Positions 33,528 through 45,604 of a stretch of 64,000 nt of DNA are shown piece after piece. A model generated the notes under the pieces. The model saw nothing but the letters and a program-made list of their open reading frames with translations. It was not told where the DNA came from and did not search any database. The stretch lies in the NCBI GenBank assembly GCA_000004985.1, contig GG738873.1; one strand, 5' to 3'. Within the stretch, counting starts at the first letter, position 1. The number at the start of each line of letters is the position of its first letter. The DNA comes from Naegleria gruberi (taxonomy: Eukaryota). The position numbers were made by a program, and so were the translations under genes.

Positions 33528-35429
33528 TTATTGGATTAAACATTTAGGTTTACCATTATTCGAAACTTGAGAATCCTGTAAAAGACAGCACTTTACAATC
33601 AATTCTTTCAATTCTTCAATTCCCACCATTTTCAATGAAGAAACTTCTGTAAATGATAAACATTTCAATTCTCTGGCTAGATTTTCTCCTTCCTCATACG
33701 AAACTATTCTTGGTTTTTCTTTCGAATAAAAATTTTCTCCTGGATTATAATTCCTCAAATCAGATTTTGTTCCCAACAGTAGAATTGGTGTTTTTGGTGA
33801 GTGAAGTCTTGTTTCCTCTACAAAAGTATCCTTAACTCGATGAAAGCTGTCTAAATTGTAGATACTGTACACTACAATGGTAAGATCTGGTGGAGGAGAG
33901 TAGGATAAATATCTAATTATTTCATAATCATATCCTCCAGCTGTATCTCTCATTTGGAGTGTGAATGTTTGATTTTTGAGAGTTACTGGAATTGGATGTT
34001 CACTTTCGAATACTGTTGGGATGTATTCTTGTGGAAATTCATTCATGGCTAGTACTATTTGCATTGAGGTTTTACCAACATTTGATGATCCAATTACGGT
34101 AATTCTAAATTCATGTAAATTATTTTCAGTTTCCTTGACAAGTTGTTGAATGTCTTGTTTTAAAATTTCCTGTTTTGGCTTGAATTGAAATTCAATGAGG
34201 GTTTTAATTCTTCCCAGTTCAATAATGTGATTTTTGGATTGTTGATAAAAAGTTCTTGAATGTAAAGCAAGATTGTAATAATTAACTCCACTACGTCGTG
34301 GGCTCACATTTTGTGATTTGCTTAACAAGAACTTCTTCCATAATTTGTCCTCAATGCTTAGTTGACTAAGTTGACAGTCTTTTCCAATCAATTGAACATT
34401 ATTGAGATCATGAACTGGTAAATATTCCAAAATCATTCTAAAAATGTCTTCGTTTAGCATTGATAACTTTCCATTATTTTCCTTTGCATTGATATTTGAG
34501 ATAGATTGTTGATATTTTCCTCCCCAGACAAAATAATAAACCACAAAGGTTAATTCGTGGGGTGTGTAAATGGTCAATGAATGGAAAACAGGTCCAAATT
34601 CAGAATTATTAAACACTCGAGAGAGAAAATGAAAGTTTTCTTCTCTCCACTCATTCTTCTCTGAGAGGTTTAAACTATGTAGAGTGGTAAAATCATGATT
34701 TGAATTACAACCACCAATCAAGAATAGCCTATCGTTTTCTATCCATGATTTGTGACCATATCTTGAAATATTTTGAGGAATTTTCTTGATTTTACAATTC
34801 AGATACTCAGATTCTGATAAATTTTCTAAATCAATTAGTAAAACGTCATTGATTGGAATATTTCCACTTTGTTTTCCACCTGAAATGATCAACAAATTAT
34901 TGTAAATCAGTGAGGAATGAAAGTATCTCCCCAAAATTTCATTATTTTTCCTATTTTTTAAAGACCGACATTTCCATTCGAAAGTTTTCAAATTTAATTC
35001 GAAAACTTGATTGGAAACAAATCCATCAGAATCATATCCACCAAATATAATCATGGAATCTTTGTAAATCTCAGCAGAATGTCCAAATCTGGGAGAAATA
35101 ACTTGATCATTCACAGTTGTTAGTTTCGTCCATTTTCCAACAGATTCCTTTGAATTAAATTCGAATTGCCAAACATCAGCTAGATATCCATTCGATTTAC
35201 CACCAAATAAAATCATTTTGTGATCATGGGAGATTGCAGAATGGAAATTTCTTGGAGATGGTTTTTCACCTTCCGATAAAATTATTGGAATGCAAGATTC
35301 TGATGAAATTTCATAAACTCTCAACTGATCAGAGTATTCGTTTTGATTGGCACTTTCGAGTAATCCACCAAAAATTAAAATATATTCATTGTTGATATTG
35401 ACGGATGTGTGACCGATGAGTTTTGACAT
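33528..35429 (-). CDS. Kelch-repeat + F-box-like + Rho-family small GTPase fusion protein with CAAX box
   Basis: N-terminal Kelch blades ('IFGGL','ILFGGKSNGYLADVWQF','IIFGGYDSDG','LIGGC'); 'LNEDIFRMILEYLPVHDLNNVQLIGKDCQ..LWKKF' F-box-like; C-terminal GTPase 'VIGSSNVGKTS','IPTVFE','DTAGGYDYEIIRYLSY','LLGTKSDLR', ends ..PKCLIQ (CaaX). Confidence 0.75.
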   Translation of the reverse strand: MSKLIGHTSVNINNEYILIFGGLLESANQNEYSDQLRVYEISSESCIPIILSEGEKPSPRNFHSAISHDHKMILFGGKSNGYLADVWQFEFNSKESVGKWTKLTTVNDQVISPRFGHSAEIYKDSMIIFGGYDSDGFVSNQVFELNLKTFEWKCRSLKNRKNNEILGRYFHSSLIYNNLLIISGGKQSGNIPINDVLLIDLENLSESEYLNCKIKKIPQNISRYGHKSWIENDRLFLIGGCNSNHDFTTLHSLNLSEKNEWREENFHFLSRVFNNSEFGPVFHSLTIYTPHELTFVVYYFVWGGKYQQSISNINAKENNGKLSMLNEDIFRMILEYLPVHDLNNVQLIGKDCQLSQLSIEDKLWKKFLLSKSQNVSPRRSGVNYYNLALHSRTFYQQSKNHIIELGRIKTLIEFQFKPKQEILKQDIQQLVKETENNLHEFRITVIGSSNVGKTSMQIVLAMNEFPQEYIPTVFESEHPIPVTLKNQTFTLQMRDTAGGYDYEIIRYLSYSPPPDLTIVVYSIYNLDSFHRVKDTFVEETRLHSPKTPILLLGTKSDLRNYNPGENFYSKEKPRIVSYEEGENLARELKCLSFTEVSSLKMVGIEELKELIVKCCLLQDSQVSNNGKPKCLIQ

Positions 35430-36159: not shown

Positions 36160-36232
36160 GCCCGTCTAGCTCAGTCGGTAGAGCGCAAGGCTCTTAACCT
36201 TGTGGTCGTGGGTTCGACCCCCACGGTGGGCG
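36160..36232 (+). tRNA. tRNA-Lys (anticodon CUU)
   Basis: GCCCGTCTAGCTCAGTCGGTAGAGCGCAAGGCTCTTAACCTTGTGGTCGTGGGTTCGACCCCCACGGTGGGCG folds as cloverleaf (7-bp acceptor with 2 G-U pairs, D-arm GCTC/GAGC, anticodon loop CTCTTAA, T-arm GTGGG/CCCAC); near-identical to metazoan tRNA-Lys-CTT. Confidence 0.9.
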
Positions 36233-39400: not shown

Positions 39401-39961
39401 GACAATTCCACCTGGTGTATTCAATAGTGCATTGGTAGCGACTCCATCATCACCGATACTCCCTGGTACACCAACTTGACCAGCGTATGTGCTAATCAAA
39501 TTACTAGATAATATGACCTTTCGAATAACATGACTATTCGTATCAGACAAGTACATGACATCACTATTCTGAAAAGCAAGTGCACTAGGATAATTGAAAC
39601 GAGCCAAAGTTGCTATAGTTGTCGTGACAGAACCAGGAATACCCACACCAGCAATTGTTTTAATTTTACCACTACTTGCCACTACTTGTCTCACTCGACA
39701 ATTTATCTTGTCAACTATGAAAATGTCACCATTGTTACTTGGAGAGAGTGCAAGACCATCAGGTATGGCAATTTCTGCCTTGGTAGCATCAATGTTATCA
39801 CCATTGTAACCATTGGGATAACTACCTGCTATGGTTTTTACATGGTATAAAGATTGACCGTGGACAATTGGTTGGGCAGCAAGAAACACCAAGTGAAACA
39901 AAAACAACAATGGTAGCAAGAATGTTGAGCTATTAGTGTTGTTGAGTTTCAATTTGTCCAT
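36413..39961 (-). CDS. Receptor-like protein kinase: signal peptide, multiple NHL repeats, tenascin-type EGF repeats, single TM, cytoplasmic kinase domain
   Basis: NHL-like blades ending in ..RVRKI/..RIRKV/..RLRKI (x8 or more); 'CSGHGDCVMNNCSCYSGWRGSSDCS..CSGHGFC..CSGNGTC' EGF units; TM 'IGLIVGLVVGLTLLVLLILLAIIVTICLIV'; kinase motifs 'IGQGAFGKCY','VAIKTI','HRDIKPRNIF','GDYGEA','YMAPE','DIFSLG'. Confidence 0.85.
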   Translation of the reverse strand: MDKLKLNNTNSSTFLLPLLFLFHLVFLAAQPIVHGQSLYHVKTIAGSYPNGYNGDNIDATKAEIAIPDGLALSPSNNGDIFIVDKINCRVRQVVASSGKIKTIAGVGIPGSVTTTIATLARFNYPSALAFQNSDVMYLSDTNSHVIRKVILSSNLISTYAGQVGVPGSIGDDGVATNALLNTPGGIVISPVNNNLYIAETSNNKIRVVSYTDGIIRTFAGGGTDTSTVVQDATNAQLNFPTSIAISNSGEVYIGEYDKIRKVFNNGTSVVMFTTFELSGQTNTVNGMAISPITGALYVTVSDKVYMIQTNGVATLIAGSSYGYAGDNQLASNAMFRVTRGIAISSSGEIFISDGGNYRVRKINTNNIITTVAGTGSNLGYNGDNIEAVKAKLFGPESVAVAPNNEVIVADTRNYRLRKISLGGIITTITPSYISPRSPLVPNVGEYYFVDSSTVKYLISSSGIVITKAGSGTTGYNADNIPATSAHLNLPKGIARSTNGDLYITDSGNHRIRKVFFNQTIITVAGTGTSTYNGDGLLATSANINNPYGIVLTSNNEVIFSEYEGHRVRKILNDGTLITIAGTGVDGYSGENLSGVNSMLRYPAGLAILSNDELLISDSQNHAIRKLFKNGTLITIAGTAPLYGYNGENLHPLETQFYGPMGVALSADESKIFIADTSNGKVRAISFGCDLQNQCSGHGDCVMNNCSCYSGWRGSSDCSLFSCETLNACSGHGFCVSNNTCSCTSGWKGSLDCSLFSCDAVKNCSGNGTCTSSNGCSCLEGYSGLSCENRIVPPTYVSPLASKNGQVTTPVNSNIGLIVGLVVGLTLLVLLILLAIIVTICLIVKLKKKKSKPLVTKEKPIEMITTIDENVTQTANNSTSVTSDFPSDTFNNSLYQLSSNTSNTNTTTTSSTQNTDHSLLKDRYKIQQVIGQGAFGKCYLCLDSKKNDMPVAIKTISYDQSRHSKIIDECSKTLSYRHANLVEVYEFFEAQIIQSICIVMKFYEGDLEHALKDLKQDGKIVSEKMIISIMKQLGDGLNYLHQEKLIVHRDIKPRNIFYSKLDRELDEIQVVIGDYGEAKETGETQNSVAGTLQYMAPEVFSRKYSYSADIFSLGVSLIQAMANDSLDLNITAQLLYDKEEVVLDRTMEHLISRGYSEKLCNFIVTMVSKEPSMRPTSADIQNF

Positions 39962-40503
39962 TTTTTTGAAAGTTATTGGTCTTTGTTAACACAGTATCTT
40001 GGTCTCTCCACAAGGAAAGGTCGCGGTACTCATCCAAGATACTACTCTCCATGGAGTTCAGTTGCCAATATAAAGATCGGACTTGCAATCTCATTCACGC
40101 ATTCATGTGTACCTGTTCAAGTTTAAAAAAGTGTTGTTTTTGAACATGAATGAGCAATGCATAGAAGGCACAATATTTAAAATGTTTGCGAATGATTCGT
40201 TTCAAAAAGTGATCATGTTCATTAAAGTTTCATTGTCACATTGAACAATGATAGTATCTGCAGAACCAACGAATGGTCTGTTTCAAATATTTGTTGCACC
40301 AAATCAGAATGGTAACATTTTCAAATGCAAGTCTCTTACTGTCAACATCGTCCATCTCTCAGTGGACCTTAAGAGAGTATCAATTCGTGCCTTGGAAGCT
40401 TTTTTGTTTGGATGGAGGTCTTGGTTTAAGTGTGGGAGATTGTGGTGGAGTAATTGAGGAAGAATCATTTGATACTATTGACCTATATTTTCTTTATAAA
40501 AAA

Positions 40504-41618
40504 ATGGCAAAACACAATCTTGCATCTCTTCCACAAGAAATTCTTCGGATCATATTATCGTATCATGTAATAGGCACATGTGGAGAATCAGCTGATTCTT
40601 CTCGGAAGGAAAAAACAACAATTTCCATCAATCAAGAAATTAAATTTATGACCAATTTTCAATCGATCAGTTCAATAATTAATAGCAAATTAAAGGAATA
40701 TTTTGATGATTTTTGGAGTGGAATTTTTGAACAATATTGTGTTGATGAAGAGGAGAAACAGGATCCTAAATTTCGAATAATGAAAGAGAAATTGGTAGAA
40801 ATGGACGAATTAAAGAGAAAGATTCTTTTAATTCGTTATATTGCTCCGATTATGATAAAACACGAAAAGATAAGAAAGACATTTAGAGATTATTTGAGAA
40901 TTGTAGTATTTGGTGATGAAGCAGTGGGTTAGTTTATTTGAAATTAATTGTTTCTAATATTGAAAAGGAAAGTCCAGTATAATTCTACGTTTCATAGAAG
41001 GTGAATTTAAAGAATGGGATCCAACTGTTGAGGATTTTCATTTGAAATCTGTAAAATTTGGAAATTCAACAACTAATCTCGATATTCTTGGTGTGGGTAC
41101 GTGAATTGAAATATTTCTTTTTAACAATTCTCGAAACTCCATATACGGATAGCTGGCCAAATGGAACACAACTCACACAGCATTAGAAATGGATATCTGA
41201 GTCAATGTGATTGTTATCTGGGTGTCTGCTCAGCAACCATCAAAAATTCAATGAATTATATAGAAGAAAACATTCAAGATTTAAATAATTCTAAGGATGG
41301 GCCCTACACACCAATCATTGTTGTGTTAAATAAGATGGATCTTATTGAGAATGATATCAATGACAGTTCAGATCGGAAATGAACAGAATTATTAAGAAAA
41401 ATAATCTTGAAAATGTTTTCACTGTTGAATGCAGTGCCAAGACAGGCGAAAATATTTCACTAATATTTGATGCATGTATTCAAATGTATATTTATGAATA
41501 TTTGAGAAGAAAGTGGTGGAATCTTTTGGAAAATGTCGCCAAGTTTGACTCTAAATATATTGAGCTGTGTACTGCTGATCCTTCCAAGTCAAAGAAAAAA
41601 ACTTGCCTCCTGAACTAG
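40504..41618 (+). CDS. F-box-like + Ras-family small GTPase fusion with CAAX box; 3 exons (40504..40927, 40967..41096, 41153..41618) and an apparent +1 frameshift near 41364-41382
   Basis: N-terminal 'LASLPQEILRIILSYHV' F-box-like; 39-nt intron 40928..40966 restores P-loop/switch I 'VVFGDEAVGGKSSIILRFIEGEFKEWDPTVEDF'; 'LDILGV|AGQME' split by intron 41097..41152; 'IIVVLNKMDL' (NKxD); after frame change 'ECSAKTGENI' (SAK) and C-terminal CLLN. Confidence 0.65.
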
Positions 41619-41659: not shown

Positions 41660-44600
41660 TTGTTAAAAAAAATGATAATTGACCAACACCAAACTGCACC
41701 TCGTTGGATTTGCAACAAGTGCCAAGGATTCATCGATAGGGGAACAATCCGATACGTCAATACTGATGAAAAGGACTTTGACTTGTGTGAAAATTGTTAT
41801 CACTGGTGTTGGGAACAGTATCAGAAGAGAAAGCAACATAATACAAATTCACAATTTAATTCTCTTGATGATGATGGTGATGATGATGTTGGGAATAACA
41901 CGGAAAATAACAAAATATTGGACATGTTCTGTAGGGATTTGGAATTTATTGTACCAACCAAGTATCACTATTCTGAAATGAAAGGACGAATTAAAAGTTC
42001 CGATCGGTTTAATAGTTCTCTGTTTAGATCATTTGTTGAATATTCACTCAATCCTTGCTTTGGATTGTTGAAACAAGATGATGGTCCCTATCATTTTCAA
42101 ACCTATGAACAGGTATTTCATTTGATTTGTTGCATCAGTATTGGATTAGATCAGATTTTGAAACCATTAATACGAGTGGGAAAGAGACAATTTGTATCAA
42201 TATGTGGAAAGAATAATTTGTATTGGTATTTGAGTGATTATGCTTGTTTCTTTAGGGGGTTTGTGATTGCCCCCATTCATTTTGCTCAATCATTTGAGGA
42301 GACGAAATATTGCATTGAACTGACAGAGAGTCAAGTTGCTATTTGTACTGAAGAAATGTTAGATTTATTCATTAGAATTACCAAAGAGTTGGATATTGTG
42401 AAATATATTATTGTAATGGATGATACAGAATCAAAATCAAGAGGAAAATTTACCAATCAAAGAGGAACACAAGAAATTGAAATTATTCCAATGAATGACA
42501 TTATTGACGCTGGAAAATCAATATTGTGTGAATATTTGAATGAAAAGAACAAACCAAGAACGAATCCATATCCAGAACATTATGAAAATCACGAGACAAT
42601 CCTTGTGACTCCACCTCAGGACAAGTACGATCCTAGAAAGATGTGGATTGGAGTGGAACATGAAGAATTTATTCTAAATAGGTTGGATAATGAGGAGGAT
42701 CTAGTGACTCTTGTTTTCACAAGTGGATCCACTGGTATTCCAAAAGGAATCATGATGAGTGATAGAGCTTTGAGAAAGGAAGTACTCAGTTTAAGGATAA
42801 AAGATCCTAAAGTTCGTTTCTCTTTTTGTCCACTCGCTCACATGAGTGATAGAAAATACACCCTATTGGCCATGTGTAATGGAGCCAGAGTTGGAATATT
42901 TACTAGAGAATTTGTTCACATCTTTGAGGATATTCAAAACTGCAAACCAGTTGTAATTGCATCCACTCCAAGATTATTCAATGTGCTGTACGATGAGTTT
43001 AAGAAAGTAGTCGAATTGGAAAGAATTCGTTGGCTTTCTTCCACTGAAACTGGGAAACCAAAAACTGAGAAGGAACTTGAGGAAAGAACCATGCTTGACT
43101 TTCAATACATGCTTGGTGGGCGTGTTCAATCAATTATTCTTGGAGGGGCTTCTTCTAGCCCACAATTAAGAGAATTTTTGGCAAAATGTTTCCAGTGTAA
43201 AGTAACAGATGGTTTTGGAATGTCTGAAGCTGGAGGAATTATGAATAACAATCGACTCAACACTAATGTCGAATACAAGTTGATTGATGTTCCTGAATTG
43301 AGCTATTTCACAACAGACAAACCTTATCCGAGAGGAGAACTTTGTGTCAAGACAAATTACATGTTTATTGGATATTATAAGAATGAAGAGCTCACTAATA
43401 ATGCACTGGATGAAAATGGATGGTTACACACCAACGATATTGTTGAAGAATTAGGACCAAATCAAATCAGAATTATTGACAGACTGAAGAATATTTTCAA
43501 ATTGAGTCAGGGTGAATTCATAGCACCTGCCAAGATTGAAGATGCTCTCACTACCTCTAAATTTATTTTCCAAGCTTTTATTTATGGCAATGTGACAAAG
43601 AGCTACTTGGTTGGTGTCATTGTTCCCAACAAAACAGTTTTAAAACAGTTTGCAATTAAGGAAGGAATTATCAAACCATCAGCCGATCACCATCTCCTAA
43701 ATGAAGAAGAGAAAGAAGTATTGGCAAATAATGAGCTGATCAAGAAAGCTCTATGTGAAGAGATTGAGAAAGTTGCTGTAAATTGTTCACTTTTGTCTTA
43801 CGAAGTTCCAAAAGATTTTATCATTGAATTTGAACCTTTTAGTGAGAAAAATGATTTACTAACCTCCTCTATGAAGGTTAAGAGATTTGGATGTGAAATG
43901 AAATATAAGGAACAATTGGAGACACTCTATGAGCATGTAGATAGAAATTACAAGAGAAAGTTGGACGAAGATTTGATTCGTGAATTGTTAGTGAACTCCT
44001 CATCAGGCTCAGAGGAATCTGCAGATGGAAATATGAAAATTATTGACAGTCTTCATGCAGTTAAATTTTCTGGAATTATGAAACAAAAATTCAACATTGA
44101 CATTCCACTTTCATTGATATTTTCTCAAACGGATAGGAATGTGGAAAGTGTAGTGAGTAGAGTTTCAAACTTTGTCACAAAAGGCCAAACTAATCAGCAA
44201 TCGTATGACTGGAAAAAGGATATTCTCTTACCACAAGAACTTCTCGATGAAATTACTGACATTACTTCAAAAGGAAAGCAGAAATTCAATAAGATATCAA
44301 ACCTAAAGAAGGGTATTCTTCTGACTGGCTCAACTGGATTTTTAGGTGCCTTCCTATTGAGAGATTTATTGGAGAATTTACAAACAGCTCAGGAGCATGT
44401 GAAAATCTATTGTTTGATAAGAGAAAAGAATCAGCAACACAGTTTATTCACTAGATTGAAGAAACATCTTGTAAAATTCAATATCTGGAAAGATACTTAT
44501 GAAAGGAGAATATCTGTCATTAGGGGAAATTTACAGGATGAGAATTTAGGTCTCTCTCATGAGGAATTCAACAAATTGGCTGGAGATGTTGACATTATTT

Positions 44601-45604
44601 ACCACAATGGAGCATATGTCAACTCAGTCATGTCGTACTCTCAATTATTCTCTTCCAATGCTGGATCTACGTACTATTTATTGAAACTTGCTTGCCTGTC
44701 ATCAAAATTGAATATCCAAAATGATGGAGATTCCTTAACACCAATTATTCTCGTTTCAACTGTTGGTGTTGTACAATCTGCGTTGTCAGAATTTGATCTA
44801 CCAACCAGAAAATCTCAAGTTAATGATAACCCTCAGGAAACTAAAGAAATGATTAGCAATCATGTCGATCAAGTCATTGGTCAACTGAAACCAATTATTG
44901 AAAAAGCAGCTGGGTATAACAGCACCAAATTTATTGCAGAACAATACATTCAACAAGCAAGGTTATTGGGATATCCCGGTGCCATCTTTAGACCAGGAAT
45001 GATTGGAAGTGATACTGAGAATGGAGTTTCGAATTTAGAGGACTGGGTCAATAGGTTGATTCTGGGATGTTTCGAATTGGGTTGCTTCCCACAAACCAAA
45101 AAATCTCTCAATGTCATTCCTGTGGATATTATTTCAAGAGTGATTGTGGAATTGACACAGAATGAGAATGTATTCATTGGTACTTTACAATCCAATCCAA
45201 ACTATTTGATTTATGAGGTGGCTAATCTTTCTCAATATGAAATTCAAATTGATAATTTACTTGGCATCGCTGCCACAACTCTAGCGAAATTGCTAAACAA
45301 GAAACCAATGGAAATGGTTAGCTACACTAAGTGGAAACAAATACTGAATGAGAGAACATCAACCGAAGAAAACGAAATGTTATTGATTTTGAAAACTCTC
45401 TTCAAATCAGATACGGAATTTCTAAAAAGCATAAACAAACTCCAAGACAACCACATTCAGAAAATCATTGAAGTTCTTTCTAGATCAGAAAGCATACAGT
45501 GCAGAGAATTAGTTCCTAACAAAAATCTAAACCAAAACTATCTTGAAAAACAAGCTCTATACCTAGTCCAGAGTCTCAAGAAGAAATTGGGCGAAAATTT
45601 ATAA
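41660..45604 (+). CDS. ZZ-type zinc finger + long-chain acyl-CoA-synthetase-type adenylation domain + phosphopantetheine carrier + NAD(P)-dependent thioester reductase (carboxylic-acid-reductase-like A-T-R enzyme)
   Basis: 'WICNKCQGFIDRGTIRYVNTDEKDFDLCENCYHWCWEQY' ZZ finger; AMP-binding core 'TSGSTGIPKG', 'GWLHTNDIVEE', 'IIDRLKNIFKLSQGEFIAPAKIE' (ACSL-like); PCP-like 'IDSLHAVKFSGIMKQ'; R domain 'LLTGSTGFLGAFLL', 'YHNGAYVN', 'GYNSTKFIAE' (YxxxK); single 1314-aa exon. Confidence 0.8.
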   Translation: MLKKMIIDQHQTAPRWICNKCQGFIDRGTIRYVNTDEKDFDLCENCYHWCWEQYQKRKQHNTNSQFNSLDDDGDDDVGNNTENNKILDMFCRDLEFIVPTKYHYSEMKGRIKSSDRFNSSLFRSFVEYSLNPCFGLLKQDDGPYHFQTYEQVFHLICCISIGLDQILKPLIRVGKRQFVSICGKNNLYWYLSDYACFFRGFVIAPIHFAQSFEETKYCIELTESQVAICTEEMLDLFIRITKELDIVKYIIVMDDTESKSRGKFTNQRGTQEIEIIPMNDIIDAGKSILCEYLNEKNKPRTNPYPEHYENHETILVTPPQDKYDPRKMWIGVEHEEFILNRLDNEEDLVTLVFTSGSTGIPKGIMMSDRALRKEVLSLRIKDPKVRFSFCPLAHMSDRKYTLLAMCNGARVGIFTREFVHIFEDIQNCKPVVIASTPRLFNVLYDEFKKVVELERIRWLSSTETGKPKTEKELEERTMLDFQYMLGGRVQSIILGGASSSPQLREFLAKCFQCKVTDGFGMSEAGGIMNNNRLNTNVEYKLIDVPELSYFTTDKPYPRGELCVKTNYMFIGYYKNEELTNNALDENGWLHTNDIVEELGPNQIRIIDRLKNIFKLSQGEFIAPAKIEDALTTSKFIFQAFIYGNVTKSYLVGVIVPNKTVLKQFAIKEGIIKPSADHHLLNEEEKEVLANNELIKKALCEEIEKVAVNCSLLSYEVPKDFIIEFEPFSEKNDLLTSSMKVKRFGCEMKYKEQLETLYEHVDRNYKRKLDEDLIRELLVNSSSGSEESADGNMKIIDSLHAVKFSGIMKQKFNIDIPLSLIFSQTDRNVESVVSRVSNFVTKGQTNQQSYDWKKDILLPQELLDEITDITSKGKQKFNKISNLKKGILLTGSTGFLGAFLLRDLLENLQTAQEHVKIYCLIREKNQQHSLFTRLKKHLVKFNIWKDTYERRISVIRGNLQDENLGLSHEEFNKLAGDVDIIYHNGAYVNSVMSYSQLFSSNAGSTYYLLKLACLSSKLNIQNDGDSLTPIILVSTVGVVQSALSEFDLPTRKSQVNDNPQETKEMISNHVDQVIGQLKPIIEKAAGYNSTKFIAEQYIQQARLLGYPGAIFRPGMIGSDTENGVSNLEDWVNRLILGCFELGCFPQTKKSLNVIPVDIISRVIVELTQNENVFIGTLQSNPNYLIYEVANLSQYEIQIDNLLGIAATTLAKLLNKKPMEMVSYTKWKQILNERTSTEENEMLLILKTLFKSDTEFLKSINKLQDNHIQKIIEVLSRSESIQCRELVPNKNLNQNYLEKQALYLVQSLKKKLGENL

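Follow-up and report, generated by a model that had tools for sequence, protein, structure and literature searches.

A probable 13-bp deletion behind the frame break of a Ras-family gene in Naegleria gruberi NEG-M

Introduction

GTPases fused to F-boxes have been catalogued in Naegleria, where they include Rab-like, Rho/Rac, Ran and G-alpha members (Herman et al., 2021, BMC Biol 19:142, PMC8296547, Additional files 4 and 10). One subgroup of the Rab-like clades carries a CaaX, and in some members the coding sequence is disrupted by mutations, in keeping with birth-and-death evolution (Herman et al., 2021, PMC8296547). A FYVE-F-box-GTPase of Euglenozoa, TbFRP, has also been described. Its F-box was proposed as a link to rapid turnover, and its authors found no orthologue in N. 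gruberi (PMC3593210).

Here we analyse the gene NAEGRDRAFT_68567 of N. gruberi NEG-M, which lies in a gene-dense stretch of 64,000 nucleotides with about 34% GC (contig GG738873.1; hereafter the window, to which all positions refer). The annotated protein is XP_002676200.1 (identical to EFC43456.1; P0031 in our collection). Herman et al. (2021, PMC8296547) classed this gene and its paralogues as plain 'Ras', with neither an extra domain nor a pseudogene flag. The locus belongs to a heterolobosean-specific clade of the Ras family that is found in N. gruberi, N. lovaniensis and Willaertia magna. In proteins of this clade a helical N-terminal extension, some 125 residues long and opening with the motif LPxEIxxxILxY, precedes a Ras-like G domain; a polybasic stretch and a CaaX close the sequence. 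The N. gruberi paralogues are XP_002668509.1/XP_002673033.1 (P0033/P0181), XP_002674532.1 (P0036) and XP_002678008.1 (P0124), all of which are named 'ras family small GTPase'. Three relatives come from N. lovaniensis (P0035, P0043 and P0065) and one from W. magna (P0058).

The reading frame of the NEG-M gene is broken within the G domain. We consider it highly probable that the break is a microhomology-flanked 13-bp deletion in this Ras-family gene and that it created a recent null allele. What is new here is that a 13-bp deletion, seen against an intact wild allele, accounts for the truncation, and that this Ras clade also bears an F-box-like extension. The locus is otherwise ordinary and already catalogued, and it reveals no new mechanism.

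Gene model and existing annotation

Reading of the three forward frames gave a three-exon gene on the + strand with its ATG at 40504. Its features are as follows.

40504-40927, + strand: exon 1, with the start Met, the F-box-like motif, a helical linker, GTPase beta-1 and the start of the P-loop (GDEAVG)
40519-40563, + strand: LPxEIxxxILxY motif (residues 6-20), within exon 1
40928-40967, + strand: intron 1, 40 nt, GTTAGT...AAAAG, phase 1, splitting the P-loop codon of Gly142
40968-41096, + strand: exon 2, with the rest of the P-loop (GKSS), switch I (EWDPTVEDF), beta-2/beta-3 and the start of G3 (LDILGV)
41097-41152, + strand: intron 2, 56 nt, GTACGT...GATAG, phase 1, splitting G3 into GV and AGQ
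41153-41382, + strand: exon 3 as read in NEG-M, AGQ...NKMD (G4, 41329-41340)...DINDSSDRK, then a premature TGA at 41380-41382
41366-41371, + strand: candidate deletion junction, with TTCAGTGTTACAT absent between 41366 and 41367 and the kept TTCAG copy at 41367-41371
41367-41618, + strand: exon 3 remnant in the -1 frame, FRSEMNRIIKKNNLENVFTV-ECSAK (G5, 41427-41441)-TGENI..., polybasic stretch, CLLN at 41604-41615 and TAG at 41616-41618

Both introns are used in the annotated protein, where the junctions read GDEAVGKSSIILRF (intron 1) and LDILGVAGQMEH (intron 2). A first-pass annotation of this DNA had placed a 39-nt intron in the P-loop and a second intron within a DTAGQ motif. Both introns are real, but the first is 40 nt long and its removal gives the peptide GDEAVGKSS rather than GDEAVGGKSS, while the G3 motif split by the second is GVAGQ, in P0031 and in the environmental allele described below alike. 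The annotated protein has 161 aa, starts at an internal Met (MDELKRK), ends with ...DSSDRK at the TGA, and matches residues 100-260 of the present model with 100% identity. In Table S8 of Herman et al. (2021, PMC8296547) the N-terminus was corrected to MAKHNL..., giving a model of 260 aa whose C-terminus is still truncated. The N-terminus of exon 1 is the same in that model, in ours and in the gene call on the environmental allele. A 42-nt in-frame intron within exon 1 (GTAATAGG...CGGAAG) was also considered and rejected; its removal gave no F-box match, and it is retained as coding sequence in the curated model and in the environmental gene call.

The G4 motif NKMD and the in-frame TGA are found where the first-pass annotation had placed them, and the G5 motif and the CaaX are indeed encoded in a different frame from the preceding part of the gene. 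The shift that is needed to join the two frames is -1 (or +2), not the +1 that had been named. The second frame is open from 41363 to the TAG at 41616-41618 and encodes ...FRSEMNRIIKKNNLENVFTVECSAKTGENI...KSKKKTCLLN; one of the peptides encoded within 41383-41615, for example, is NNLENVFTVECSAK. This downstream frame is free of stops for about 85 codons, for which the chance expectation from base composition is about 5e-4. The premature TGA and an ATG overlap as ATGA at 41379-41382, and this ATG opens a remnant ORF of 79 codons.

An intact environmental allele and the 13-bp deletion

The closest sequence to the locus is a metagenome contig of 2089 bp in ENA (ERZ929261; L001 in our collection), which is N. 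gruberi-like and 99% identical. The gene product called on it (P0032) has 140 aa and is 98% identical to exon 1. Both P0031 and P0032 were recovered by an exhaustive representative search; a word-indexed protein search returned neither, so a negative result of that search does not equal absence. The contig is syntenic with window positions 39642-41552 and includes the start of the adjoining kinase gene. In the pairwise alignment the two sequences differ by 22 substitutions, and the environmental allele carries 13 additional bases, TTCAGTGTTACAT, between window positions 41366 and 41367. Its local sequence reads GACAG-TTCAG-TGTTACAT-TTCAG-ATCGG, so what NEG-M lacks is one copy of TTCAG, a 5-bp direct repeat, together with the 8 nt between the copies.

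The lesion at 41366/41367 lies 14 nt upstream of the TGA. The first-pass annotation had offered a 1-nt indel as one possible cause of the frame change, and the alignment replaces this by a 13-bp deletion that is not at the TGA itself. With the 13 bases present, the ORF reads through as NKMDLIENDINDSSVLHFRSEMNRII…ECSAKTGENI and remains unbroken as NKMDLIENDINDSSVLHFRSEMNRIIKKNNLENVFTVECSAKTGENI... to the end of the contig, which corresponds to window position 41552, 66 nt before the stop. Thus the environmental allele has G4 and G5 in one frame, whereas in the window their frames differ and the TGA separates them. The coding sequences of the two alleles differ by just two indels, the 13-nt one and an in-frame one of 6 nt (His-Asn). 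Upstream of 40504 there are several indels whose lengths are not multiples of 3.

The repaired protein aligns with the paralogues without a gap at the site (SSVLHF--RSEMNRIIKKN versus ETIDRF--RQEVNSIVSDN), and after repair the spacing from NKxD to ECSAK is 32 residues, the same as in XP_002668509.1. On the strength of this gap-free alignment and of the matching spacing, the intact state present in the 99%-identical environmental allele is identified as ancestral and NEG-M as the allele that suffered the deletion. The ratio dN/dS between the NEG-M and environmental alleles is 0.20 (7 synonymous and 6 non-synonymous changes; binomial P=0.006 against neutrality). Intron 1 is identical in the two alleles, and the introns together differ by 3 substitutions in 96 nt. 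The low dN/dS and the stop-free tail of about 85 codons point to purifying selection until very recently and hence to a young lesion. The suggestion of a young pseudogene in the first-pass annotation is supported by the intact environmental allele.

Deletion between the two TTCAG direct repeats would fit replication slippage or a microhomology-mediated event. The 13 bp lost, equal to 4 codons plus 1 nt and located 26 nt downstream of G4 NKMD, would amount to a -1 shift. Translation would then end at the TGA at 41380 after 260 residues, and the truncated product would lack G5 (SAK), helix alpha-5 and the membrane anchor. The C-terminal truncation of both XP_002676200.1 and the curated 260-aa model is attributed to this deletion. 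The NEG-M allele thus appears to be a recent loss-of-function allele, a young pseudogene that is possibly strain-specific or heterozygous, and we infer that neither frameshifting nor unusual splicing rescues it. The value of this result is chiefly for annotation: NAEGRDRAFT_68567 merits a flag in NEG-M as a disrupted allele or pseudogene, and the environmental allele allows the full-length form of about 343 aa, with its CaaX, to be rebuilt.

Two further observations concern the alleles of this clade. Between the kinase and GTPase genes the environmental contig has about 216 extra bases (its positions 526-741, against window positions 40166-40188), a segment without a repeat copy elsewhere in the window; several small indels lie at 40404-40478. 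P0033, on a 9,586-bp contig, and P0181, on a 337,165-bp scaffold, are both from NEG-M and share one protein cluster at 90% identity. The pair may represent two haplotypes that were not collapsed, or else a very recent duplication, a question that bears on whether the deletion described here is allele-specific.

Alternative explanations of the frame break

The reference assembly or consensus may have dropped the 13 bases, for instance through a collapsed repeat or in a low-quality region, in which case NEG-M would have them and its gene would be intact. We regard this as unlikely, although it is favoured by the undecayed state of the rest of the gene, with its dN/dS of 0.20, and by the look-ups, which yielded no independent NEG-M confirmation of the deleted allele. 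Look-ups of three ORFs found no independent contig with the NEG-M-type deletion, and two JGI metagenome scans, the first with the protein and the second with a DNA pattern for the junction that would have matched either allele, revealed no further alleles; the environmental contig is the one intact allele that these searches yielded. Against an error stands the form of the lesion: a clean loss of 13 bp that is bounded exactly by a 5-bp direct repeat bears what we read as the signature of biological slippage or microhomology. The 100 nt on each side of the deletion are identical in the window and the environmental allele, which does not suggest a low-quality stretch. Errors of base calling are typically changes of one nucleotide in a homopolymer.

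Recoding of the deleted allele could take the form of -1 frameshifting within 41363-41382, or of termination and reinitiation at the ATGA at 41379-41382, and the intact downstream frame and the overlap of stop and ATG speak for it. A programmed frameshift had been among the readings of the first-pass annotation, next to a young pseudogene and a sequencing error. There is, however, no slippery heptamer X_XXY_YYZ in 41340-41382, including the 20-nt overlap of the two frames (GAC AGT TCA GAT CGG AAA TGA), and the arrangement is not kept in relatives, since this region lies in one and the same frame in the nearest allele and in every paralogue. In the intact protein the Met of the ATGA overlap is simply an internal residue, at a position where paralogues have V or L, and between G4 and G5 a product of frameshifting would fall 4-5 residues short. 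Recoding is thus very improbable. If the deleted allele were nevertheless expressed in a non-standard way, its core (residues 1-260) and a separate, prenylated fragment of 79 residues with G5 and alpha-5 might reassemble as a split GTPase, an outcome to which we give almost no weight. Restoration of the frame in the mRNA by a non-canonical intron (AT-AC or GC-AG) is likewise hardly to be expected. Enumeration of all GT-AG, GC-AG and AT-AC introns confirmed that none of the GT-AG type would both fit the phase and leave NKMD and ECSAK in place. AT..AC candidates do exist at 41344-41384 (41 nt), 41356-41384 (29 nt) and 41379-41422 (44 nt), but only their terminal dinucleotides fit, and by our own reading of the sequence none has a U12 donor of the ATATCCTT type in register. 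Each non-canonical intron would moreover remove conserved residues that the environmental allele and the paralogues encode in frame, and the 13-bp deletion already accounts fully for the frame break.

The GTPase domain

The Ras profile of Pfam (PF00071) matches the joined product with 88.5 bits in one stretch, residues 132-295, and the product repaired with the 13 nt with 86.4 bits (cutoff 21.6 in both cases). The match spans profile positions 1-158 of 162 and runs as a single stretch across the junction, so that the scan of the corrected protein upholds the Ras-like assignment of the first-pass annotation. The G1 P-loop conforms to GxxxxGK[ST] as GDEAVGKS, and G2 has the switch-I Thr in DPTVED. 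By positional comparison with H-Ras, the residues equivalent to G12 and G13 are Glu and Ala. G3 departs from DxxG (Asp57, Gly60): NEG-M, the annotated P0031 and the environmental allele all have GVAGQ, and most paralogues have DTAG. The C-terminus, KSKKKTCLLN followed by a stop, is reached in the -1 frame only, and the paralogues end in CSIM, CLLQ, CLMV, CLFM and CLLM. A CaaX with N as its last residue is unusual.

From these motifs the intact protein would be a membrane-anchored, atypical Ras. Since GDEAVGKS and GVAGQ are atypical in both alleles, they suggest altered nucleotide handling rather than decay. With Glu and Ala at G12/G13 and Gly-Val in place of the Asp-Thr of G3, the intact protein is probably deficient in hydrolysis or altered in nucleotide binding.

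The N-terminal extension

The first-pass annotation had described the gene as a fusion of an F-box with a GTPase. The GTPase part of this description stands, and so does a motif typical of the first helix, LPxE(I/L)xxxI(L/F)xxL, which is present in the target as LASLPQEILRIILSY. The target N-terminus does not match the F-box profiles PF00646, PF12937 or PF13013, and no Pfam F-box family matches it even at E<=10, so the label is a tentative one for this protein. Two paralogues marginally pass: the N-terminus of P0058 matches PF12937 with 25.3 bits (cutoff 24.3), and that of P0036 matches PF13013 with 22.7 bits (cutoff 21.6). The matches of the remaining paralogue N-termini are sub-threshold and cover the first helix only. 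In the alignment of nine N-termini, L9, P10, E12 and I17 are invariant. When the family profile was compared with PDB sequences, F-box proteins ranked first and third (FBXO42 and UCC1), as weak matches with E=0.37 and 1.9. The N-terminus is F-box-like and could plausibly be a divergent F-box, a tentative assignment in this protein, and this putative module may recruit Skp1/SCF.

Neighbouring genes

The flanking ORFs are exact matches to NEG-M proteins on a scaffold of 461,873 bp. The following genes adjoin the locus.

33528-35429, - strand: XP_002676274.1, a Kelch propeller and a Rho/Rac-type G domain with the CaaX CLIQ
36160-36232, + strand: a single gene for tRNA-Lys(CTT), just downstream of XP_002676275.1
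36413-39961, - strand: XP_002676275.1, NHL repeats, teneurin-type EGF domains and a C-terminal protein kinase; receptor-kinase-like
41672-45604, + strand: an intronless ORF of about 1310 aa with AMP-binding and NAD_binding_4 (thioester-reductase type) domains, starting 54 nt past the GTPase stop

The first-pass annotation had counted XP_002676274.1 as another F-box/GTPase fusion, so that two of them would flank the tRNA and receptor-kinase locus. This was overstated. The gene encodes Kelch and Rac parts, and its F-box match is sub-threshold (PF00646, E=0.12 and 12.7 bits for the whole protein, 15.2 bits for the excised segment; cutoff 20.5). Residues 322-370, between the Kelch and G domains, are F-box-like (LSMLNEDIFRMILEYLPVHDLNNVQLIGKDCQLSQLSIEDKLWKKF, with the match at residues 322-345). 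Herman et al. (2021, PMC8296547) curated the protein as 'Rac, Kelch' and its relative XP_002668324.1 as 'Kelch, F-box'.

A look-up of the adjoining kinase gene on other contigs found none on record. The architecture of the ORF at 41672-45604 is that of a carboxylic-acid reductase or an acyl-AMP ligase-reductase. As read from the first ATG, this ORF is absent from the protein collection, so its annotated model must differ.

Comparison with known GTPases of this kind

Like the target, the neighbour XP_002676274.1 has a G domain of the Ras superfamily and a CaaX at its C-terminus, and an F-box-like segment (LSMLNEDIFRMILEYLPVHDL...LWKKF) precedes the G domain. It differs from the target by its N-terminal Kelch propeller, and the two G domains are just 29% identical. 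The paralogues are much closer in architecture: they share with the target the LPxEI..IL.Y motif, a variable loop, QSINK...YFxxFWW, a KRK linker helix, the Ras domain, and the polybasic stretch with CaaX. The target is 34% identical to P0033 over residues 10-336, and the spacing of G4 and G5 is equal in the two once the 13 nt are restored. The paralogue genes are in frame, and most of them have DTAG at G3 and GxGGVGKS at G1. At these motifs both alleles of the target read GVAGQ and GDEAVGKS, and its CaaX ends in N.

The Naegleria fusions of Herman et al. are like the target in having an extension N-terminal to a Ras-superfamily G domain, with an F-box 'in at least some' members. TbFRP joins an F-box to a Ras-like GTPase in another discoban lineage, but the target is without a FYVE domain and has a CaaX. 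The disrupted NEG-M allele is one further case of the rapid birth-and-death turnover that is known for the expanded GTPase family of Naegleria.
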